Shown here one piece after another: positions 3,327 through 13,778 of a stretch of 22,089 bases of DNA; position 1 is the first letter of the stretch, and each line of letters starts with the position of its first letter. Location of the stretch: assembly GCA_963769885.1 (NCBI GenBank), contig CAVYNH010000002.1, positions 1-22,089 on the forward strand, given 5' to 3'. A program made the translations under genes and the position numbers. The notes below the pieces were generated by a model. It was given only the letters and a program-made list of their open reading frames with translations, was not told the origin of the DNA and did no database searches. This DNA is from Methanobacteriota archaeon (lineage in GTDB: Archaea > Thermoplasmatota > E2 > DHVEG-1).

Positions 3327-4346
3327 TTAGGTTAATTCACCCTTCCGCTTCGTAATAGTGTCCAACGCCTCTTTCATCTCTTTCTTATCGAAGGATCGGG
3401 CAGCGCCCTGCTCCTCTTCTTTTTTCGGCGCGGCAAGCCCCAGGTAGACCTCAGGCGTCTTCCACACAAACTCAGGGATAAGCACCGGCATCTCCCTCCC
3501 CGGCACCATCAAGGGATCCAGCTTCCCCCCCATCTCAGCACCGATGAACCGCTCCTGCTTGAACTGCTTACTCAACAGCTTGGTATGGAGAAAAACCGGC
3601 CGCGGATAATACACATCCCGGCGGAACAACGTGTTAAAGAACCCCTGCGCCTGCTGCACCGGGAACTGGTACCACCGCCCCGGGTACGCCAAATGCACCG
3701 GCCCCTGGTACGAATGGCTATCGACCTCCCCGTAAAAAAATCGGTACTGGTCGACCTTAAAGAACCGCGGCTCCGGCCCCTGAATCGGCCACAGCTTCGA
3801 CAGGAACTTGAAATCTTTCGTCGCCACGTTAAAGCCCGTCACATTCACCACCGACTTCGACACGATCAAATCATGGAACCGCGGGGTTCCGAACCGCGGC
3901 AGCAACCACATATCCGCGTCCCACTTCGGCGCCACATGCGAGAACCGGGTCTTTGACATCCCCCAGTTCGTGTAATACGAAAAAATATGCACCGATGCGT
4001 CCCCCGGGAACTGGGGGTACATGATGCGCTCGAACTTCCGCTTCGGGGTCCGATCCGTCACCTTCGCAAACGAAAACGGATACCGCAACAGCCGCAGCTT
4101 CGGCGACCGAAAACTCTTCACAATCTCCTCGGTCCGATCCCCCTCCTTCTCCGTCATCGTCACCAGAATCTCATCGCACAACGGCAGCATGCTCTCCAGA
4201 CACGGCCCAATCCACCGCTCCTCCCCAAAGCAACGGATGACCACAGACAACCCAGGTTTCCTATGCTTGTACCACTCTGGGTCTATGTTAAAATCCGAAT
4301 ACCCCTCCGTATTCTCCAAAATCATCTCACTAGGATGAAGCGGCAT
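3327..4346 (-). CDS. GT-A/GT2 glycosyltransferase, CgtA (beta-1,4-GalNAc transferase)-like; paralog A
   Basis: GLSVVIRCFGEERWIGPCLES...DEILV...DRTEEI GT2 N-terminus, RYPF...SYYTNW and KWDADM DxD motif. AGGAG SD before ATG 4346. Confidence 0.8.
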   Translation of the reverse strand: MPLHPSEMILENTEGYSDFNIDPEWYKHRKPGLSVVIRCFGEERWIGPCLESMLPLCDEILVTMTEKEGDRTEEIVKSFRSPKLRLLRYPFSFAKVTDRTPKRKFERIMYPQFPGDASVHIFSYYTNWGMSKTRFSHVAPKWDADMWLLPRFGTPRFHDLIVSKSVVNVTGFNVATKDFKFLSKLWPIQGPEPRFFKVDQYRFFYGEVDSHSYQGPVHLAYPGRWYQFPVQQAQGFFNTLFRRDVYYPRPVFLHTKLLSKQFKQERFIGAEMGGKLDPLMVPGREMPVLIPEFVWKTPEVYLGLAAPKKEEEQGAARSFDKKEMKEALDTITKRKGELT

Positions 4347-4426
4347 CACGATACTCCTAGAAATCTCTCACAACGCCCGGACCGACCGACGCACATTGCT
4401 CTGAGCCGATCCCATCACCCTGACGT

Positions 4427-4434
4427 TATTTAAA
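4427..4434 (-). promoter_or_regulatory. TATA box for GT paralog A in the divergent intergenic region
   Basis: TTTAAATA on the minus strand, ~80 nt upstream of ATG 4346. Confidence 0.4.
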
Positions 4435-4528
4435 CATTCTCCACACGTCCCCCCTCGACGCAAACAACGCACCATGCATCGAAGAGAACAAAAGTTCTTA
4501 GAATCCGAATGATTACCAGTGCACTGCA

Positions 4529-5482
4529 ATGCCGCTGAACCGCTGCCCCATGATCCTGGAGAACACCGAAGGATACTCCGACTACAACATCCGCGACGAC
4601 TGGTACACCCACCGCACCCCCGGCCTCTCCATCGTCCTGCGCTGCTACGGCGAAGAACGCTGGATCGGCCCCTGCCTCCAAAGCGTCCTCCCCCTCTTCG
4701 ACGAAATCCTCATCACCCTCACCGACAAAGAAGGCGACCGCACCGAAGCCATCGCCAACAGCTTCCACTCCCCCAAAATCCGCATCCTCAAATACCCCTT
4801 CAAAATCAACACCATCACCACCAAAACCTACGGCACCAAACGACAACACATCTTCCACAAAAAATACCCGGGCGCCCCCTCCGTCCACAGCTTCTCCTAC
4901 TACACCAACTGGGGCATGGCCCAAACCCACCACACCCACGTCAGCCCAAAATGGGACGCCGACATGCTCCTCCTCCCCCACTACGCCACCACCGACTTCA
5001 AACACCTCATCCTCACCAAATCCATGGTCTACGTCCTCGGCTACAACGTCGCCACCCCCGACCTCCGCTACCTCTCCAAACTCTGGCCCCTCATCGGCCC
5101 CGAACAACGCTTCTTCAAAGTCGACAAATACCGCTACCACATCGGCGAAGTCGACGAACTCACCTACCAAGGCATCGTCAAGCTCGGCTACCCCGCCCGC
5201 TGGCAACAATTCCCCATCCAACAAACCCAATGCCTCTTCAACGCCCTCCTCCACCGCGACATCTACTACCCCACCCCCATCTTCATCCACACCAAACTCC
5301 TCAAAAACACCCACGACGACGGCCGCTTCGTCGGCAAACGCCTCTACGACACCCAATACCCCGGCTGGTGGCAAACCCTCCGCGACCAAACCCACCCCGG
5401 CAACCCCACCCCCACCCCCATCCCACCCTTCTTCCACAACCCCCCAGAAACCTACCTCAACCATACCCCCACCACACCATAA
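4529..5482 (+). CDS. GT-A/GT2 glycosyltransferase, CgtA-like; paralog B
   Basis: 317 aa with the same motifs as paralog A (GLSIVLRCYGEERWIGPCL, KYPF, SYYTNW, KWDADM). 38 of the first 52 residues are identical to paralog A. Confidence 0.8.
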   Translation: MPLNRCPMILENTEGYSDYNIRDDWYTHRTPGLSIVLRCYGEERWIGPCLQSVLPLFDEILITLTDKEGDRTEAIANSFHSPKIRILKYPFKINTITTKTYGTKRQHIFHKKYPGAPSVHSFSYYTNWGMAQTHHTHVSPKWDADMLLLPHYATTDFKHLILTKSMVYVLGYNVATPDLRYLSKLWPLIGPEQRFFKVDKYRYHIGEVDELTYQGIVKLGYPARWQQFPIQQTQCLFNALLHRDIYYPTPIFIHTKLLKNTHDDGRFVGKRLYDTQYPGWWQTLRDQTHPGNPTPTPIPPFFHNPPETYLNHTPTTP

Positions 5483-5527
5483 TCTTTTCATACCACCCAA
5501 CGAATAAACCCCAACCCGGGGGAGACC

Positions 5528-7321
5528 ATGCCACGCACCCTCATCCAAAAAATCTTCGCCACCCACACAAAAGACCCCGCCACCGTCGACGCCATCATCG
5601 AACTCGCCATCGACCTCAGAACCGCCCGCGACTTCGGCGGCGCCAACGTCGTCAAACACCTCCAAGACCACCACCTCACCCCCCAAGACCCCACCAAAAC
5701 CCTCTTCACCTTCGACTGCAACCCCGGCGGCTGCGACCAAAAATACGCCATCAACCAACACCTCTGCCGCCAATACGCCCGCACCCACCACATCCCCATC
5801 ACCGACATCAACCAAGGCATCGGCACCCACCTCGTCATCGACCACCACCTCATCACACCGGGCGACACCTTCGTCTCCACCGACAGCCACGCCAACATCC
5901 TCGGCGCCATCGGCGCCTTCGGCCAAGGCATGGGCGACATCGACATCGCCTACGCTTTCGCCCACGGCACCACCTGGTTCAAAGTCCCCCCCACCACACG
6001 CCTCACCCTCAAAGGAACACCCAGCCCCCACGCCACCGCCAAAGACGTCACCCTCAAACTCGCCAAAGACCTCGGCGCCAACGGCCTCCTCGGCTCCGCC
6101 GCCGAACTGACCGGCCCCTACACCGACCGCCTCACCCTCGACCAACGCATCACCATCGCCTCCATGGGCACCGAAATGGGCGCCATCGCCCTCCTCCTCA
6201 CCCCCAACAAACCCATCATCGACTACTACCATCACTCCCACCACCACACCATCCCCCCACTCGCCCCAGACCCAGACGCGACCTATAACCAAATCGTCAC
6301 TATCGATATCAACGGCCTGACCCCCCAACTCTCCCGTCCCGGCCACCCCGAAGACGTCACCAGCGTCCACGACTGCGAAGGCACCCCAATCGACTCCGGC
6401 TTCATCGGCTCCTGCACCAACGGCCGACTCGAAGACCTCAGAGCCGCCGCCGCCATCCTCAAGGGACGGCACATCGCACCCGGCCGCATCCTCAAAATCG
6501 TCCCCGCCACCGACGACATCTGGAACACCTGCCTCCAGGAAGGCCTCCTTAAAATCTTCAAGAACGCCGGCGCCCTCATCGGCTCCGCCGGCTGCGCCGG
6601 CTGCGCCGCCGGACAGATCGGCCAGACCGGCGCCGGCGAAGTCACGGTCTCCACCGGCAACCGCAACTTCACCGGCAAACAAGGCAAAGGAGACATCTAC
6701 CTCGCCTCCCCCCAGACCGCCGCCGCCAGCCTCATCGCCGGCTATATCACCACCGCCGATGCCATCCCCCGGTCCCCCGCGCCACTCCCGCAAAGCACCC
6801 CACCAGCCATCCAGAAGAAACCAGAATCAGCCAAGCATCCATCCCTACAACTGCAGGGGAAAGCCTGGGTCATCAATCAGGATAACATCGACACCGACGC
6901 CATCTACCACAACCGCCACCTCACCGTCACCAACATCGCTGAAATGGGCCAGTTCACCTTCGCCAGCTTCAAAGGCTACGAACAGTTCTCCAAAAACGCG
7001 GCCCCCGGCGACATCGTCGTCACCGGTAAGAATTTCGGCTGCGGCAGCAGCCGCCAACAGGCAGTCGACTGTTTCAAGTCCCTAGGCATCAGCCTCATCA
7101 TCGCCGACTCCTTCGGCGCCATCTACGAACGCAACGCCATCAACAGTGCCTTCCCCATCTTCACCCTCCGCAACGCCACCGCCTCCATCGCCACCGGCGA
7201 CCACCTCACCGTCGACCTCACCACCGGCACCATCATAAACACAACCACAGGAACTCGGCTGCAGGCCAAACCTTTTTCCCAGGTACAACGCTCCATCTAC
7301 GAACGAGGAGGACTCCTGTAA
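5528..7321 (+). CDS. Aconitase-family (LeuC/HacA + LeuD/HacB) large-small subunit fusion with an atypical active site
   Basis: 597 aa: STDSH, NMG-like SMGTEMGA, GSCTNGR, GCAGC (three Fe-S Cys) and STGNRNF. A Pro-rich linker leads to a swivel domain with DNIDTD and GKNFGCGSSR. Confidence 0.88.
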   Translation: MPRTLIQKIFATHTKDPATVDAIIELAIDLRTARDFGGANVVKHLQDHHLTPQDPTKTLFTFDCNPGGCDQKYAINQHLCRQYARTHHIPITDINQGIGTHLVIDHHLITPGDTFVSTDSHANILGAIGAFGQGMGDIDIAYAFAHGTTWFKVPPTTRLTLKGTPSPHATAKDVTLKLAKDLGANGLLGSAAELTGPYTDRLTLDQRITIASMGTEMGAIALLLTPNKPIIDYYHHSHHHTIPPLAPDPDATYNQIVTIDINGLTPQLSRPGHPEDVTSVHDCEGTPIDSGFIGSCTNGRLEDLRAAAAILKGRHIAPGRILKIVPATDDIWNTCLQEGLLKIFKNAGALIGSAGCAGCAAGQIGQTGAGEVTVSTGNRNFTGKQGKGDIYLASPQTAAASLIAGYITTADAIPRSPAPLPQSTPPAIQKKPESAKHPSLQLQGKAWVINQDNIDTDAIYHNRHLTVTNIAEMGQFTFASFKGYEQFSKNAAPGDIVVTGKNFGCGSSRQQAVDCFKSLGISLIIADSFGAIYERNAINSAFPIFTLRNATASIATGDHLTVDLTTGTIINTTTGTRLQAKPFSQVQRSIYERGGLL

Positions 7322-7335
7322 GGAGGTATACGTTT

Positions 7336-8604
7336 ATGGGTAAGACATTCGCTGAAAAAATCCTCGCCCACTACGGGAAAAAAGACGATGTGGTCCCAGG
7401 AGAGATCGTGACCGTCCACCCGGACCATCTTCTCATGCACGACAACGCCGCACCAATCATCAAGAAGATCACCGCCGATCTTGACTCCTACGGTATCTGC
7501 GCACCAAACCTCCCTATTATCGTCCTCGACCATGTCATCCCTGCAGTCGATGAGAAGACTGCGACTAATCATCAGTTGATTCGTGGGTTCGTCAACAAAT
7601 ACAACCTCCCCTTTTTCTACGATGTCGGCGAAGGCGTGTGCCATCAGATCGTCGTCGAAAAAGGACTCGCCCTCCCCGGGACGCTCCTGCTGGGAAGCGA
7701 TAGCCATACCTGCAGCTATGGAGCCGTCGGTGCGTTTTCTACCGGCATCGATCGGACCGAGGCCGCCGCCCTCTTGCTCACGGGTGAGACCTGGCTGAAG
7801 GTCCCGAAGAGCATCCGCGTCAACCTTAACGGGATGATGCAGCCTATGGTCTGTGCCAAGGATGTCGTCCTCTGGATTATTGGGCAGCTCGGCGCGAGTG
7901 GTGCCGACTACTGCTCGGTCGAATACCATGGGGATATCGCCCAGTTCTCCGTTGATGATCGGTTCGCCATCGCCAACATGGGCGTCGAGATGGGGGCGAA
8001 GAACGCCGTGTTCCCCGTAGATAAGATTACCACGAAATATCTCCGCGGCATTGGCATAGAGGCCTCGAAATATACCCCGGTTTCTCCTGACCACGACGCC
8101 GGGTATGCGTCCACATTGGATGTTCCTCTCGAAGAGATCCCGCCGATGGTCGCGGTCCCTCATCATGTCGACACGGTCAAACCGGTCACTGAGGTCGCCG
8201 GCATCGCCATCCAGCAGTGCTTGTTGGGGACTTGCACGAACGGGCGGCTGTCTGATCTTCGGGTTGCTGCGCGGGTGCTGAAGGGCAAGACTGTGCATAA
8301 GGGCGTCCGTCTCTTGGTGCTGCCGGCATCGCGGCAGGTCTATCTGGATGCGGTTAAGGAGGGCTACATTGATGTCCTCGTCAAGGCTGGTGGGCTGGTG
8401 CTGCCGCCCGGGTGTGGTCCCTGTCTGGGGGCGCATCAGGGGGTGTTGGCGCCGGGTGAACGGTGCCTGAGTACGTCGAATCGGAATTTTAAGGGTCGGA
8501 TGGGCTGCAAGGACGCGGAAATCTATCTGGCGGGTCCGGCGACGGTCGCCGCCTCGGCTATCCATGGGGTCATCACGGACCCGCGTGCGGAGGTGAAGCC
8601 ATGA
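7336..8604 (+). CDS. leuC: 3-isopropylmalate dehydratase/homoaconitase-type large subunit (LeuC/HacA family; substrate not determinable)
   Basis: 422 aa with canonical MHD, LDH, GVCHQ, DSHT, CTNGR, CGPCLG and STSNRNFKGRMG. AGGAGGT SD at 7321. Confidence 0.9.
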   Translation: MGKTFAEKILAHYGKKDDVVPGEIVTVHPDHLLMHDNAAPIIKKITADLDSYGICAPNLPIIVLDHVIPAVDEKTATNHQLIRGFVNKYNLPFFYDVGEGVCHQIVVEKGLALPGTLLLGSDSHTCSYGAVGAFSTGIDRTEAAALLLTGETWLKVPKSIRVNLNGMMQPMVCAKDVVLWIIGQLGASGADYCSVEYHGDIAQFSVDDRFAIANMGVEMGAKNAVFPVDKITTKYLRGIGIEASKYTPVSPDHDAGYASTLDVPLEEIPPMVAVPHHVDTVKPVTEVAGIAIQQCLLGTCTNGRLSDLRVAARVLKGKTVHKGVRLLVLPASRQVYLDAVKEGYIDVLVKAGGLVLPPGCGPCLGAHQGVLAPGERCLSTSNRNFKGRMGCKDAEIYLAGPATVAASAIHGVITDPRAEVKP

Positions 8605-9119
8605 AGGTTTGGCGGTATGGCGATGATGTGAACACGGACATGTTGTTTCCTGGGAAGTATACCTATACCTGTAGTACGCCTGATGAGATTAAGCCGCATC
8701 TCCTAGAGGATCTTGATCCGTTGTTCGCGAAGGGTGTGCAGCGGGGGGATCTCATCGTGGCGGGGCGGAATTTCGGCTGCGGCAGCAGCCGCGAGCAGCC
8801 GGTGCTCGGGCTGGTGGCGGTCGGGGTGAGCGCGGTGGTCGCGGAGAGTTTCGCGCGGATTTTCTATCGTGCGGCGATCAACCAGGGGTTGCTGCTGATA
8901 GAGTGTCCGGCGGCGGTCAAGGCGTATCGGACTGGTGCTGCGATTGTGGTGGATGTGCAGTCGGGAATGGTCCATGTGGGGTCTGCGTCGTTTCCGTTCC
9001 CGCGGCTTCCGGCAGAGATTCTGGCGATCCGTGAGGCGGGTGGGCTGTTGCCGTACACGCGGGCGCGGTTGAAGAAGGGGAAGGTGTGTGTTGGGGAAAA
9101 AGAGGGAAATAAAGGGTGA
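8601..9119 (+). CDS. leuD: 3-isopropylmalate dehydratase/homoaconitase-type small subunit (LeuD/HacB family)
   Basis: 172 aa: GDDVNTD, GRNFGCGSSRE, SFARIFYR.AIN.G and AGGLL. ATGA overlap with the large-subunit stop. Confidence 0.9.
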   Translation: MKVWRYGDDVNTDMLFPGKYTYTCSTPDEIKPHLLEDLDPLFAKGVQRGDLIVAGRNFGCGSSREQPVLGLVAVGVSAVVAESFARIFYRAAINQGLLLIECPAAVKAYRTGAAIVVDVQSGMVHVGSASFPFPRLPAEILAIREAGGLLPYTRARLKKGKVCVGEKEGNKG

Positions 9120-9424: not shown

Positions 9425-10402
9425 TTAGGGGGCGTCGGTGACGAGGAGTTCTTTGACCGGGGTGCCGTCGCTCCAGAGGCCCATGTACCGCTGCTGGGTG
9501 GTGTTGCCGAGGGCATAGTCGTGGTTGGTGCCGTAGAAGGCGTAGTCGGTGAGGGCGTCGAAGAGCTTCCAGGTGGAGTAGTAGTCCATGGCGTTGACCT
9601 GGGTGGAGTTCTCTGGGCAGACGGGGGCGAGGTGGTCGGCGATGAGGGCGGGGGCGCCGTAGCGGTCGGTACGCTGGATGACGTAGTCCTTGTTCTCCAG
9701 GGGGATCTGGTCGGCGGTGGTGAAGATGAGCTTGGCGGAGGCGTTGCCGGCGATGTGGTCGTCTGCGCCGACGACGAGCAACAGGAGTGTCTGGGCTGGG
9801 ATGTCATGGTAGTCGGTGAGCATGACGTCGGTGCGGACGTAGGGCTGCACGGGCATGACCGCCTTCGGCACCGGGAGTCCGACGGAGGCTGCTTTCGCGG
9901 CCATCTCGGCGGTGATGCCGCCGCCGAGGGAGTGACCGACGATCGCGAACTTGTTGGTGTCCGGGTGGACGTGGCCGCTGGTCTGCAGGATGCGGAGGGC
10001 GTGGTGGACGGCGCGGATCGCATGCACGGTGGAGTAACGGAGGCCGATGATCATGCCGAGCTGGTAGCGGGGGTAGATGACGATGTTGCCGCGGCGGACG
10101 AGGTGTGTGATCCAGGCCTGGTAGTAGTGGGGGGTGACGGCGGAGTAGCCGTGGTTGAAGACGATGACGGGAGCCTGTACGGGGGCGGGGTCGGCGGGTT
10201 CAAAGAGCCAGAACGACCATGCGCCGATGCCGTACTGATGCTCGGTGACTGCGGCGTGCGAGTAGTTGGACGAGCCGGGCCCGTCCGTGGGCTGGCCGGG
10301 CGGGGTCGGCGTAAGCGGCTGTGCCATGGCCAGTGGCGACAGGGTGCTGGGGACGAGGAAAAGCATGACTGACAGGGCCAAGGCCGTGAGACGGTAGTGC
10401 AT
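9425..10402 (-). CDS. Secreted alpha/beta hydrolase (chlorophyllase/cutinase-like esterase)
   Basis: Signal peptide MHYRLTALALSVMLFLVPSTLSPLAMA, VIVFNHGY oxyanion motif, GHSLGG nucleophile, GADD acid and ADH His. ATG 10402 is preferred over the track's upstream TTG. Confidence 0.85.
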   Translation of the reverse strand: MHYRLTALALSVMLFLVPSTLSPLAMAQPLTPTPPGQPTDGPGSSNYSHAAVTEHQYGIGAWSFWLFEPADPAPVQAPVIVFNHGYSAVTPHYYQAWITHLVRRGNIVIYPRYQLGMIIGLRYSTVHAIRAVHHALRILQTSGHVHPDTNKFAIVGHSLGGGITAEMAAKAASVGLPVPKAVMPVQPYVRTDVMLTDYHDIPAQTLLLLVVGADDHIAGNASAKLIFTTADQIPLENKDYVIQRTDRYGAPALIADHLAPVCPENSTQVNAMDYYSTWKLFDALTDYAFYGTNHDYALGNTTQQRYMGLWSDGTPVKELLVTDAP

Positions 10403-10455
10403 AACGTAGCCTCTACTCAAAGAATGAATCCGGTTTGGTTAATAATGTTTTGTGC

Positions 10456-10674: not shown

Positions 10675-12202
10675 TCACGGCATGGCCCGCAGCAGCAGCA
10701 TCGTCCCCACGATTTTCTTCTCACCGTTCACCCACGGTAACAGGGTTTGGGAGAACCGTCGCGACTTGCCGTCTGCACCCGCAAGCTCGACGCGCGCCGT
10801 CCGCGGCGCGCAAGTTGACAGCACCAGCAGCTCCACCGCAGCCAGCTGTGCCGCGTACTCAGCGCCAAGGAATCCGTACTCGCGGCGGTCCAGCAGCTGG
10901 TCCATCGGCAGGTTCGCCCACTTGGCCATCGCCGCGTTCACCACCACGAGTCCGCGCATTTCATCCTTGACGGCGACCAAGTCAGGCAGTGCATCCAGCA
11001 GCAGCCGCAGCAAACTTTGCGAACGTTCCAGCTCCTGCTCCGCCTGCCACCAAATCGTAATATCCCGCGAGATCCCCATCGTTCCGATCACCTCGCCATC
11101 CACCGAGTACCCGTGGGATCTTCGTCACCATCACCCACCGCTCACCGAACGAGTCTACGACTTTCTCTACCTTGTTGACGATTGGCACCCCTGACAGGAG
11201 CACCTGTTGGTCGTCCTCCTGCATCTGTGTCGCCACTTCAGATGGCAAGAAATCCGCGTCCGTCTTGCCGACCATCTGATCCGGCCGGACGCGCGCACGG
11301 TCCGCCTTCGCCGTGTTCACCAGGATGAATCGATGCTGGGCATCCTTGAAGTACACCGAATCCGGGATGTTGTCCAGCAATGTGTGGAACAGCTCATGCT
11401 CACGGGCCCGGGCCCGCTCCGCCTCGTTGCGCGCCGTGATATCCCGGATGATCAACACGAAATTATCCACCTCATTGTCCTTCTTCACCAGGAAGAACGA
11501 GCTGATCTCCACCTCCAGCACCTGCCGCTTCGTCGTCTGAATCTCCGTCGTATAGCACGCGGCCTGCTTCTCCGAATGCAGCTGCTCAAACTCACTGACC
11601 ACCACCGGCAACGACCGAGCCGTCAACAGCTCCATATTGAACAGGTTCTTCGACAGCAGATCCTGCTTCGCGATGTCCAGCAGCTCACACACCCGCGTGT
11701 TCACATCCACGATGTCCCCACGCGCATCCAAGACGATGATGCCATCAGTCGCATACTCAAACAGGCCCCGATACTTCTTCTCGCTCTCCTTCAGCCGCTG
11801 CTCCGCGGTCCGTCGCACCTGGATATCCCAGAGCAGCACGAACATCACGATCCGCGCCTCCATCCGGAACACCGACAGGCTCACCTCCACCGGCCGGCGC
11901 GACCCATCCTTACAGACGCACTCCGTCTCCACGTTCAACCCGCCGCGGGCAGCCAGCTCATCCCGAATCCCCATCCAATCCGTCTCCGGCGGCAGCACAT
12001 CCTGCAGCGACAACCGCGGCAGCTCCCCCCACTCATACCCCAAGAACTCGGACGACCGATGGTTCGCCTCAAGGATCCGCCCGGACAAATCAGCAAGGAA
12101 CGCTGACGCATTCACCCGCTCAAATAACGTCTTGTACCGGTCATGCGCCACCGACGACCGCGGCACATCCTCCGGAGAAAAACTACCCACTGCCTCGGGC
12201 AT
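10675..12202 (-). pseudogene. Multi-PAS (about 4 PAS/PAC) protein with no output domain, split by a +1 frameshift (pseudogene or assembly error)
   Basis: Track ORFs 10982..12208 and 10675..11103 join if one C is removed from the CCC at 11110-11112, giving the PAC motif WVMVTKIPRYSVDGEVIGTMGISRDIT. Repeats seen: YKTLFE..A, YRGLFEYATDGI, LLDNIPDSVYFKD, LLDALPDLVAVKD. Confidence 0.75.
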
Positions 12203-12250
12203 CACCACTCACGCATCCCAACCAACTGGTGCAATAAATCTGCCAGCGGT

Positions 12251-13282
12251 TTATAAACCTGCGGACTCGACCGCCACCCGCCAGACGTCCCCCTGATTCA
12301 GCAGCTCCAGCCGCCGCGGCATGAACTGCTGCAGCACCCAGATGTTCGTCTTCATATGACTGCTGCACTCCCGGACCAGACAGGCCGACGTCTCACGACA
12401 GGCGACCATGTACGGCAGCAGCTGATCCACCGCGTGCGGATCTAACGTCGCCCCCGCTTTGATGTCGGAGATCAACCGTCGCATCGCCGTCTTGCCTACC
12501 TGCTCCGCTGGGAGCTGCCGCTCGCCGAGGACGCCGGCCCCTAAGACCGTCTCCTCGGTGGAAGACCACACCGTAATCCCCACGCCCTGGGACGGTGACG
12601 ACGCCTGCTCCGTCTTCAAGCTCGCTCGGAGATTAGCGGCCGTTGCTTCCTTGATTGCCGCGTGCTTCATCCGCGTCGTGATATGTTCGGGGAGCCCTGA
12701 GCTGTGGATGATGCCCTCAATAACCGAGAATGTCTGCGGGGTATCAACGAGGAATGGCTGCAGCTGGCTCTCAGGCGAGACTGTTAACTCGGCGCGACCG
12801 CCGCCTTTGGGGTAGTAACCGCGTTGCAGGAGGCGCACCTCCGCTCTCACACCCATGCGGCGGGCTAACGGTAGGAACACATGTGCAAAATAGTCCCAGG
12901 ATGGCGCCCAGAGCACGTCTGTGCCGCCAGTCAGCGAAATCGTGAGTGGCCCGGTCGTTCGCAGCCCTCCCAGGAGGCATGCCTGCAGGATCAGGGTGAT
13001 GTTCCCCGCAGTGCCGATGTCAAAGGTATAAGTGCCTGGCCGGACAAGGCCAGGGGAGAATCTAATGGTTCTGGAGCCGATGGACAGCCCGGTGACCTCC
13101 GCGTTGCAGATGGCCTGCAGGCAGGAGATTGCGGTGTAATGCTGTGGGCGTAGGCCGGGGATCGGCCGGTTCGCCCGGATGTTGTTGACCTCGATGGGCG
13201 TCTGGGTGTACACAGAGTACGCGATGGCGGTGCGTAGGATCTGTCCGCCGCCTTCACCGAAGGAGCCATCAATTGTCAGCAT
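12251..13282 (-). CDS. rtcA: RNA 3'-terminal phosphate cyclase
   Basis: True start ATG 13282 (343 aa): IDGSFGEGGGQILRTA, NIRANRP.PGLRPQH, GGTDV, RGYYPKGGG and catalytic LDPHAVDQLL. Confidence 0.95.
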   Translation of the reverse strand: MLTIDGSFGEGGGQILRTAIAYSVYTQTPIEVNNIRANRPIPGLRPQHYTAISCLQAICNAEVTGLSIGSRTIRFSPGLVRPGTYTFDIGTAGNITLILQACLLGGLRTTGPLTISLTGGTDVLWAPSWDYFAHVFLPLARRMGVRAEVRLLQRGYYPKGGGRAELTVSPESQLQPFLVDTPQTFSVIEGIIHSSGLPEHITTRMKHAAIKEATAANLRASLKTEQASSPSQGVGITVWSSTEETVLGAGVLGERQLPAEQVGKTAMRRLISDIKAGATLDPHAVDQLLPYMVACRETSACLVRECSSHMKTNIWVLQQFMPRRLELLNQGDVWRVAVESAGL

Positions 13283-13778
13283 TCGGGCACCGTAAGGGGA
13301 GCAGTTCGTTAAGAAGGATGAGAGCTTCGGTGCAGGCACTGTCTTTGTTCTGCAGCCTGTCACCATGGAACAGGAATCGGCGGACGACGATGGTCTGGGG
13401 GGTGGCGACGGCGACGTAGACGAGGCCGACGGGTTTAGTCGGGGTGCCGCCGGTCGGACCGGCGATGCCGGTGGTGGCGATGCCGTAGTCGACCTTGGCG
13501 CGGGTGCGGATGCCGGTGGCCATGGCTCTGGCGGTTTCTTCGCTGACGGCGCCGTGTTCTTGGATGGTGTGTGTGGGGACGCCGAGGAGTTCGTGTTTTG
13601 CGGTGTTGCTGTAGGTGATGACTCCGCGGTCGAAGTAGTCTGAGCTTCCGGAGATGTTGGTGAGGGTGCTGGCGAGGAGGCCGCCGGTGCAGGATTCGGC
13701 GGTTGCGACTGTGGCGTGGAGTGCTCGGAGTCGTTCAGAGGTTTTATTAAGAAGTTGTTCATCTACCACTTGCGTCAC
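13269..13778 (-). CDS. cinA: CinA/PncC family nicotinamide-mononucleotide deamidase (C-terminal CinA domain only)
   Basis: 169 aa: TAESCTGG, SGSSDYF, YSN.AK, GAVS, TGIAGPTGG and KPVGLV. Overlaps the rtcA start by 14 nt. Confidence 0.92.
   Translation of the reverse strand: MTQVVDEQLLNKTSERLRALHATVATAESCTGGLLASTLTNISGSSDYFDRGVITYSNTAKHELLGVPTHTIQEHGAVSEETARAMATGIRTRAKVDYGIATTGIAGPTGGTPTKPVGLVYVAVATPQTIVVRRFLFHGDRLQNKDSACTEALILLNELLPLRCPNADN

Follow-up and report, generated by a model that had tools for sequence, protein, structure and literature searches.

What stands in for the catalytic histidine of an aconitase when that residue is missing, and which reaction is left to the enzyme? The question is raised by a gene in a 22,089-nucleotide stretch of archaeal DNA (Thermoplasmatota, DHVEG-1; contig CAVYNH010000002.1, positions 1 to 22,089), the whole of which is referred to here as the window. 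Positions 5528–7321 of its plus strand, to which window coordinates refer unless stated otherwise, hold a stop-free reading frame for a fusion of LeuC and LeuD, 597 amino acids in length. The textbook mechanism of aconitase relies on Ser642 as base, His101 as acid and the free iron of the cluster, and all characterised members of the superfamily carry an Asp-His pair where the fused protein has Asp63-Cys64. Aconitase His101, which protonates the leaving hydroxyl while Ser642 serves as the base (PMC8184944), is thus absent. The comparisons described here place the protein in a large clade that lacks this histidine, for which the name FDC-type was coined in this analysis. They suggest, at a probability of about one in three, that an FDC-type enzyme and the canonical LeuCD-type partner often encoded beside it together act as a two-enzyme citrate isomerase.

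Active-site residues were mapped by aligning the fused protein with the LeuC and LeuD encoded next to it, with the isopropylmalate isomerase (IPMI) and homoaconitase (HACN) of Methanocaldococcus jannaschii, and with pig aconitase. The N-terminal 85 residues gave no direct alignment to the pig enzyme; the equivalences of Cys64 with pig His101 and of Arg34 with pig Gln72 run through the LeuC/HACN alignment and textbook knowledge. Residue counts come from 78 copies, each from a different species, at the scanned loci described below. Asp63-Cys64 (5714–5719, Cys64 at 5717–5719) lies at the position of aconitase Asp100-His101 within FDCNPGGC (5711–5734), in which FDC replaces the LDH of the neighbouring LeuC. 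The ARD motif (5624–5632) corresponds to MHD in LeuC, and its Arg34 (5627–5629) takes the place of a His in LeuC/HACN and of Gln72 in aconitase. Two further substrate-contact positions are changed: Ser212 replaces Asn258 in SMGTEM (6161–6178), followed by the retained Glu216 (aconitase Glu262; Ser212 to Glu216, 6161–6175), and Lys384 replaces Arg452 in NRNFTGK (6659–6679), where Asn378-Arg379 (aconitase Asn446-Arg447) is kept. Arg34, Ser212, Glu216 and Lys384 are each present in 78/78 copies. In the swivel domain, the substrate-recognition loop IYHNRH (6902–6919) replaces the P-G/A-x-Y-L loop of LeuD/HacB; its His461-Asn462 is invariant and position 463 is Arg in 73/78.

The remaining catalytic apparatus is conserved. 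Asp119-Ser120-His121 (5882–5890; aconitase Asp165-Ser166-His167) is kept, as are the three [4Fe-4S] ligands, namely Cys296 (6413–6415; aconitase Cys358) and the Cys356 and Cys359 of CAGC (6593–6604; aconitase Cys421 and Cys424), all 78/78. The GSSRQ motif (7043–7057) retains Ser508, Arg509 and Ser507, which corresponds to the base Ser642, and has Gln510 for Glu. The initial annotation had listed the changes MHD to ARD, LDH to FDC and SSRE to SSRQ, together with retention of the three cluster cysteines, DSH, NRNF and GSSR. All of these are borne out by the alignments, although that list of catalytic changes was incomplete, since it missed Asn258 to Ser212 and Arg452 to Lys384. Its reading of GVCHQ to GIGTH (5816–5830) stands in part. 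The change is present in ungapped alignments, in which Thr100 of the fused protein lies opposite aconitase His147 and the neighbouring His is shifted, whereas a HMMER profile alignment sets the fused protein's own His101 (of GIGTH) opposite pig His147 and the M. jannaschii HACN His by way of a one-residue insertion. The equivalent of His147 may therefore be retained in GIGTH, read as GI-CHQ with one inserted residue, and by these alignments aconitase His101 is the only catalytic histidine clearly lost. Two other cysteines, Cys80 (5765–5767) and Cys515 (7070–7072), are specific to the clade (77/78 each), with Ile and Gly at these positions in canonical partners; the copy at locus L063 has lost Cys64 and Cys80 together.

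These replacements are a trait of a subfamily. A word-indexed search returned 120 relatives at 64–83% identity, nearly all about 600 amino acids long and from Thermoplasmatota or Thermoplasmatales wherever a name is given; Arg34, Asp63, Cys64, Gly-Ile-Gly-Thr-His, Ser212, Lys384, GSSRQQ and the HN of the loop are invariant when all 120 are aligned. In the other 119 sequences, 188 alignment columns never vary, and the window copy conforms to 186 of them. When one genome per species was scanned for the pattern, the set grew to at least 585 species, with members at 53–67% identity in Planctomycetota, Gemmatimonadota, Bacteroidales, Cloacimonadota, Krumholzibacteriota, Fermentibacteria and others. 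Among the 78 copies, 75 have Cys and 3 have Thr at position 64, and at position 69, the second Cys of NPGGC, 18 (archaea only) have Cys and 60 have Ser. Arg34, His101 of GIGTH, Ser212, Lys384, His461 and Asn462 are invariant, as are the cluster ligands, the Ser base, DSH, Glu216, Asn378-Arg379 and Arg509. In more distant sister branches, some of which are split into two subunits, the signature persists and position 64 is Leu or Tyr. Within the window genome's own family, the gene is present in 36 of 38 genomes. The earlier proposal of a distinct subfamily rather than decay is strongly supported by this conservation and by the monophyly described below; the RD, DC and GTH motifs hold in the 120 relatives and the 78 species (apart from the three Thr copies), and the substitutions, far from being unique to this genome, recur in hundreds of species.

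In a superfamily tree, the FDC-type proteins and their sister branches form one clade (Shimodaira–Hasegawa-like approximate likelihood ratio test, SH-aLRT, 100; core 99), apart from the split canonical partners, the fused canonical partners and the PRK07229-type aconitases. Split and fused partners fall into clades of their own, and the order of branching in these visibly mirrors that in the FDC-type clade. The clade is recognised by the signature ARDF / FD[CT] / GIG[TS]H / S-M-x-T-E / NRN[FY]xGKQ / GSSRQQ / HN[RK] loop, and the window protein belongs to it by both tree position and signature. Membership of the superfamily is clear from Pfam, with matches to Aconitase (PF00330; E 2.5e-73, 248.1 bits, cut-off 28.7) and Aconitase_C (PF00694; E 1.4e-14, 55 bits, cut-off 22.8). 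The protein nevertheless falls below the archaeal IPMI/homoaconitase cut-offs (NF001614, 380.3 vs 385; TIGR01343, 347.7 vs 385.7; TIGR02086, 348.3 vs 410.15), all three of which the neighbouring LeuC passes, and far below those for fused aconitate hydratases (NF005558, 287.2 vs 612; TIGR01342, 232.4 vs 719). Since it fails these curated cut-offs and lacks the conserved His101, the fused protein is, as judged from its sequence, an aconitase-superfamily member outside every characterised family. A survey of genomes with the reductive tricarboxylic acid (TCA) cycle takes H101, D165 and residue 167 (presumably His167) as the marks of aconitase A and gives aconitase B a residue set of its own (PMC13147460). 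No characterised member of the FDC-type clade was found in the literature searched. Phosphomevalonate dehydratase (aconitase X) was considered and set aside as a different family, to which the fold matches are weak.

The fused protein consists of a LeuC-like domain (residues 1–410), a Pro/Ser/Thr-rich linker (about 411–440) and a LeuD-like swivel domain (441–597), and its ATG follows 3 nucleotides after a Shine-Dalgarno-like GGGGGAG (5518–5524) read from the sequence. An AlphaFold2 model built on the 120 relatives has a mean predicted local distance difference test score (pLDDT) of 81.7, with low confidence at residues 67–69 and 353–387, which are loops around the cluster. The modelled large domain matches the M. 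jannaschii IPMI and homoaconitase large subunits 4KP1 and 4KP2 (template-modelling score, TM, 0.87), and the modelled C-terminal domain matches the IPMI small subunit 3VBA (TM 0.9, root-mean-square deviation 1.2 Å). The aconitase fold predicted for the protein is confirmed by these structural matches of the model.

The best matches among known systems are the M. jannaschii IPMI/citramalate isomerase (MJ0499/MJ1277; 4KP1, 3VBA) and homoaconitase (MJ1003/MJ1271; 4KP2, 2PKP), with a sequence E value of 3.6e-65. These enzymes share with the fused protein the three cluster cysteines, DSH, NRNF and GSSR. Unlike it, they have two subunits and His-Asp, Asp-His and Cys-His-Gln motifs, where the fused protein is a single chain with Arg-Asp, Asp-Cys, GIGTH, the Ser and Lys changes and the HNR loop. 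The PRK07229-type aconitate hydratases (about 650 amino acids), one of which is encoded on contig 6 of the window genome, likewise have a single-chain LeuC-LeuD-like architecture, but they form a separate clade with a canonical Asp-His pair; the contig 6 protein scores 947 bits where the window protein scores 287 (cut-off 612). Mitochondrial aconitase (7ACN/5ACN) has the same fold, and its Asp100, Asp165-Ser166-His167, Glu262, Cys358/421/424, Asn446-Arg447 and Ser642-Ser643-Arg644 have equivalents in the fused protein. Differences from it include His101 to Cys, Gln72 to Arg, Asn258 to Ser and Arg452 to Lys, a His147 that is shifted or lies behind an insertion, and the order of the domains.

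Gene neighbourhoods carry the functional argument. Neighbouring genes were clustered and annotated in 80 loci from 80 species, and a canonical aconitase-family partner was found in 38 of them, directly downstream in 36, either as a split LeuCD-type enzyme or as a fused protein of 590 amino acids with His-Asp, Asp-His and Cys-His-Gln motifs. In Thermoplasmatota, the order fused gene-leuC-leuD is syntenic. The window's own partner comprises a canonical LeuC/HacA-type large subunit (7336–8604, 422 amino acids), assigned by this synteny and by 518.7 bits against the hacA_fam cut-off of 385.7, and a canonical LeuD/HacB-type small subunit (8601–9119, 172 amino acids) whose gene overlaps leuC by 4 nucleotides. 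The leuC-like gene begins 14 nucleotides past the fused gene and is preceded by a strong AGGAGGT at 7321–7327. A β-decarboxylating dehydrogenase resembling AksF/LeuB occurs in 17/80 loci, and an HD-domain protein of 180–190 amino acids in 35/80, mostly immediately upstream.

Citrate-cleaving genes are present in 34/80 loci (CitF in 24, citryl-CoA lyase in 19, CitD-E in 14 and an ATP-citrate lyase (ACL)-β-like gene in 5) and take three forms: CitF with citryl-CoA lyase (CCL), a CitD-E fusion with CitF, and an ‘ACL-like’ pair of succinyl-CoA synthetase (SCS)-like and citryl-CoA-lyase proteins. That three alternative and only partly homologous citrate-cleaving systems occupy the same slot points to citrate as the metabolite. 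At the Planctomycetota locus L026, the order KorA-KorB-dehydrogenase (IsoDH)-HD-FDC-LeuC-LeuD-ACLβ-ACLα reads as successive steps of the reductive TCA cycle. Thermoplasmatota also have operons of the form HD-CitF-CCL-FDC, in which it is the FDC-type gene that is tied to citrate lyase; the genomes with these operons carry a LeuC-like gene elsewhere. Among distant members of the clade, P0128 adjoins HD and ATP-citrate-lyase-like genes and P0135 adjoins AcnB.

Two features of these neighbourhoods are recorded alongside. The small HD/HDIG-domain protein (e.g., L026:7411-7986 and L031:7364-7978) lies upstream or heads the operon in archaea and bacteria alike, and a phosphohydrolase has no obvious place in a route from citrate to isocitrate. 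In two bacterial loci of the same gene order (L032:506-14801 and L036), the FDC-type gene has no adjacent canonical partner. It stands between upstream genes for a phosphoenolpyruvate carboxykinase-like protein, an aminotransferase fusion and an aromatic-amino-acid ammonia-lyase, and downstream genes for CitD-E, CitF and phosphotransacetylase, a setting that suggests amino-acid fermentation.

A working model can be assembled from these observations. The invariant cluster ligands, Ser base and carboxylate-binding residues argue for an active Fe-S hydro-lyase, the basic residue of the HNR loop argues for a tricarboxylate substrate, and the recurrent pairing with a canonical paralogue suggests that two enzymes share the isomerisation between them. 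The FDC-type protein is assigned the side of the tertiary alcohol on the strength of its tie to the lyase in the HD-CitF-CCL-FDC operons. The FDC-type enzyme would thus interconvert citrate and cis-aconitate, and the LeuCD/HacAB-type partner would interconvert cis-aconitate and isocitrate. Ser507 would act as the base and the free cluster iron as the Lewis acid, with either Cys64 or the invariant His101 of GIGTH supplying a proton to the departing hydroxyl. Together with the AksF-like dehydrogenase and the HD, SCS-like and citryl-CoA-lyase genes, the pair would link 2-oxoglutarate, citrate, and oxaloacetate plus an acetyl unit. That the fused protein is a catalytically competent [4Fe-4S] hydro-lyase with this substrate and this half-reaction is a tentative reading of its sequence. 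Somewhat more doubtful is the broader proposal that many anaerobes run a citrate-type isomerisation by an obligate two-enzyme system in which the thiol of Cys64 or a relocated His donates the proton. The ‘different chemistry’ put forward in the initial annotation is a possibility; among its three options, restriction to one half-reaction would agree with the conserved pairing, a further metal ligand is disfavoured and nothing supports cis/trans isomerisation.

A precedent by analogy for such a division of labour may be seen in homocitrate isomerisation in the α-aminoadipate pathway. Fungal and Thermus homoaconitases perform the second half-reaction only, and a separate aconitase dehydrates homocitrate (PMC3556520). 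Two aconitase-family enzymes (Aco2/AcoA and Lys4 in fungi), each with one half-reaction, are involved, and a likeness to the FDC-type pair is proposed. In the aminoadipate system, both enzymes have canonical active sites and they are not encoded together; in the FDC-type pair, one partner belongs to the clade without His101 and the two usually share an operon beside a lyase.

The metabolic complement of the window genome (G000; 2.09 Mb, 92% complete) bears on this model. The remainder of the module is present in two places, with an HD-ACLβ'-ACLα' operon on contig 6 and an AksF-like dehydrogenase on contig 7. The three genes of the operon (contig 6, 534485–538433, minus strand; L089:1983-5934) encode an HD protein of 178 amino acids, an SCS-β-like protein of 427 amino acids without a Citrate_bind domain and an SCS-α/citryl-CoA-lyase fusion of 715 amino acids. 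The ACL-like proteins are 62–64% identical to those encoded after FDC-LeuCD in L026. By sequence, this is a second, non-canonical ATP-citrate-lyase-like enzyme beside the canonical ACL. A canonical citrate set lies in one block of the same contig (about 299000–305600, minus strand; L004:3263-9596) and comprises the PRK07229-type aconitase (654 amino acids, 947 bits), an NADP-isocitrate dehydrogenase, an ACL β with a Citrate_bind domain and ACL α; an acetyl-CoA synthetase is encoded nearby on the opposite strand.

No LeuA-type synthase was found in the window genome. In G002, a complete 4.1-Mb chromosome, and in G005, a metagenome-assembled genome (MAG), the aconitase family is represented solely by the FDC-type gene and one LeuC gene; there is one Iso_dh gene per genome, and neither a LeuA-type synthase nor a free citrate synthase was found in them. 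Since a LeuA-type synthase is missing there, the partner in G002 and G005 is not a leucine enzyme, and a role in leucine biosynthesis was rejected for these two genomes and for the window genome. Lysine biosynthesis via aminoadipate was also considered for the window genome, in which neither a LysX-type nor a LysA-type gene was found. A close relative, G022 (97% complete), lacks both the FDC-type gene and LeuC.

Several observations weigh against a two-enzyme citrate isomerase. Half of the loci with room downstream (31/62) have no adjacent partner. The Bacteroidales pair has no companion but an AraC-type regulator ahead of it, in neighbourhoods that are otherwise uninformative, and at least one genome with such a lone pair, G003, carries AcnA and a mitochondrial-type aconitase as well. 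The bona fide citrate set of the window genome would make a second citrate route redundant, the module's lyase has no Citrate_bind domain, and the best-scoring models for the partner enzymes and the dehydrogenase are those of HacA/B and AksF. By microscopic reversibility, moreover, the loss of aconitase His101 does not by itself predict a single half-reaction.

Some of these points would be accommodated if the same two-enzyme logic served a homologue of citrate, most plausibly homocitrate, an explanation that is credible though on balance unlikely. The FDC-type enzyme would then interconvert homocitrate and cis-homoaconitate, the HacAB-like partner cis-homoaconitate and homoisocitrate, and homoisocitrate would be connected to 2-oxoadipate by the AksF-like dehydrogenase. 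Cleavage of homocitrate by the lyase into 2-oxoglutarate and an acetyl unit would yield a route that shortens 2-oxoacid chains in the breakdown of lysine or 2-oxoadipate. The partner passes the hacA_fam cut-off, the dehydrogenase matches AksF models best, a complete and separate citrate set already exists in the window genome, and the SCS-like lyase of the module has no Citrate_bind domain; to these can be added the Cloacimonadota locus L081, with a saccharopine dehydrogenase and a lysine-oxoglutarate reductase (LOR)-like gene directly upstream of CitDE-CitF-FDC-partner, and the two-enzyme requirement of known homocitrate isomerisation (PMC3556520). Yet no substrate other than citrate is known for CitF, CitE, citryl-CoA lyase and ACL-type enzymes, apart from citramalate in the case of CitDEF-like complexes, three different citrate-cleaving systems fill the same slot in different lineages, and the KorAB-IsoDH-...-ACL order reads directly as reductive TCA. 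In the window genome, tblastn with the L081 saccharopine dehydrogenase and LOR-like proteins gave no saccharopine-pathway genes, neither a LysX-type nor a LysA-type gene was found, and the substrate motif of the dehydrogenase is ambiguous, with Ser as in isocitrate dehydrogenase followed by Ile-Val where that enzyme has Asn. A simpler explanation, rather improbable on the present evidence, makes the FDC-type protein a complete stand-alone aconitase or IPMI/HACN-like isomerase, with Cys64, His101 of GIGTH or Arg34 as the acid and LeuCD unrelated to it. Its remaining catalytic and cluster residues are intact, the equivalent of His147 is possibly retained, and many loci, HD-CitF-CCL-FDC operons among them, lack an adjacent partner; a paper on Cloacimonadota MAGs names the genes of such an ACL-IDH cluster simply aconitase (PMC8542988). 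This leaves unexplained why a partner, split or fused, follows directly in 36/80 loci from archaea and many bacterial phyla, why the partner tree parallels that of the FDC-type clade, why the partner persists in G002, G005 and the window genome with no LeuA-type synthase to serve, and why Thermoplasmatota genomes with HD-CitF-CCL-FDC operons still hold a LeuC-like gene elsewhere.

Other explanations depart further from a citrate isomerase. The joint change of Arg34, Ser212, Lys384 and the HNR loop at substrate contacts could mean another substrate or chemistry, such as hydration of trans-aconitate or of a stereoisomer, a 2-methylcitrate-type dehydration with other stereochemistry, or cis/trans isomerisation. 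In the methylcitrate cycle, AcnD/PrpF or PrpD (2-methylcitrate dehydratase) and the canonical AcnB share one isomerisation, and FDC-type proteins likewise pair with bona fide aconitases such as AcnB, which adjoins the distant member P0135; the conserved HD protein would also suit some other chemistry. However, AcnD is a large AcnA-like protein and no methylcitrate-cycle genes occur in FDC-type neighbourhoods, in which no isomerase, methylisocitrate lyase or methylcitrate synthase recurs. The recurring neighbours are instead citrate-cleaving enzymes and an isocitrate-type dehydrogenase, and the basic residue kept in the HNR loop fits a tricarboxylate, which leaves this family of explanations quite improbable. 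Cys64 might also, alone or with Cys80 and Cys515, ligate a fourth cluster iron or a second metal in a redox, sensor or regulatory protein. It lies at the His101 position next to the substrate site, and the other two cysteines are found in 77/78 copies and are absent from canonical partners, with the joint loss of Cys64 and Cys80 in L063. Because 3 of the 78 copies, intact in other respects, have Thr at position 64, and sister branches with Cys80 preserved have Leu or Tyr there, Cys64 does not appear to be an obligatory metal ligand; Cys69 is Ser in bacteria, and a non-catalytic protein would have no need of an invariant Ser base and carboxylate-binding residues, so that a role of this kind is very improbable. 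Finally, a duplicate in decay as selection relaxes, its sequence distorted by local strand bias, is a negligible possibility. The fused gene does have an extreme composition (C fills 76% and T 3% of its third codon positions, compared with 39% and 21% in the adjacent leuC), a skewed amino-acid make-up and a terminal branch longer than its sister's. Strand bias accounts for many replacements of Lys, Val and Glu by Thr, His, Pro and Gln at unconstrained sites of the window copy. Its frame is nonetheless intact, it keeps 186/188 family-invariant columns, and its motifs occur in relatives in hundreds of species, so that decay was rejected, as was an artefact of strand bias, since the motif changes are common to unbiased relatives.

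A large clade in hundreds of species of archaea and many bacterial phyla thus dispenses with His101 under strong purifying selection, which makes it a direct test of whether this histidine is essential in aconitase and of how it can be replaced. FDC-type genes are currently annotated as ‘isopropylmalate dehydratase’, ‘homoaconitase’ or ‘aconitase’, and the metabolism reconstructed for sediment archaea and candidate phyla, with reductive-TCA carbon fixation among the claims, depends on the role of the enzyme and its partner. Should the two-enzyme reading be true, it would cover Thermoplasmatota, Planctomycetota, Cloacimonadota, Bacteroidales, Gemmatimonadota and others; the superfamily would gain a new catalytic solution, with a thiol or relocated His donating the proton, and the pair would fill an unrecognised step in reductive or fermentative metabolism of citrate (or homocitrate). 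A homocitrate module, if true, would constitute a new route of 2-oxoacid chain shortening.

The composition of the fused gene belongs to a wider pattern. Between 2800 and 13800, the window consists of kilobase-scale strand-skew domains that are independent of gene orientation: the plus strand is rich in C and A between about 3 and 7.3 kb, where GC skew falls as low as -0.53, rich in G between about 8 and 10.5 kb, and C-rich again beyond that. Composition was computed for the genes at 3327–4349, 4529–5482, 5528–7321, 7336–9119, 9425–10420 and 10982–12208, and third-position usage is opposite in neighbours, with 76–78% C and 0–3% T in 4529–5482 and 5528–7321 and 54–58% G in leuD, the PAS gene and 3327–4349. 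On the minus strand, a 787-codon open reading frame (4430–6793) composed almost entirely of Gly, Val, Ala, Glu and Asp codons overlaps the fused gene as well as the gene just upstream of it; this frame was rejected as a gene and is regarded as a by-product of the skew. An RNA 3'-phosphate cyclase frame on the same strand (12251–13762) has 503 codons, with its RTC domain starting at residue 169, where syntenic relatives have 339–348 amino acids, and its long N-terminus is probably an over-extension of the reading frame in a skewed region.

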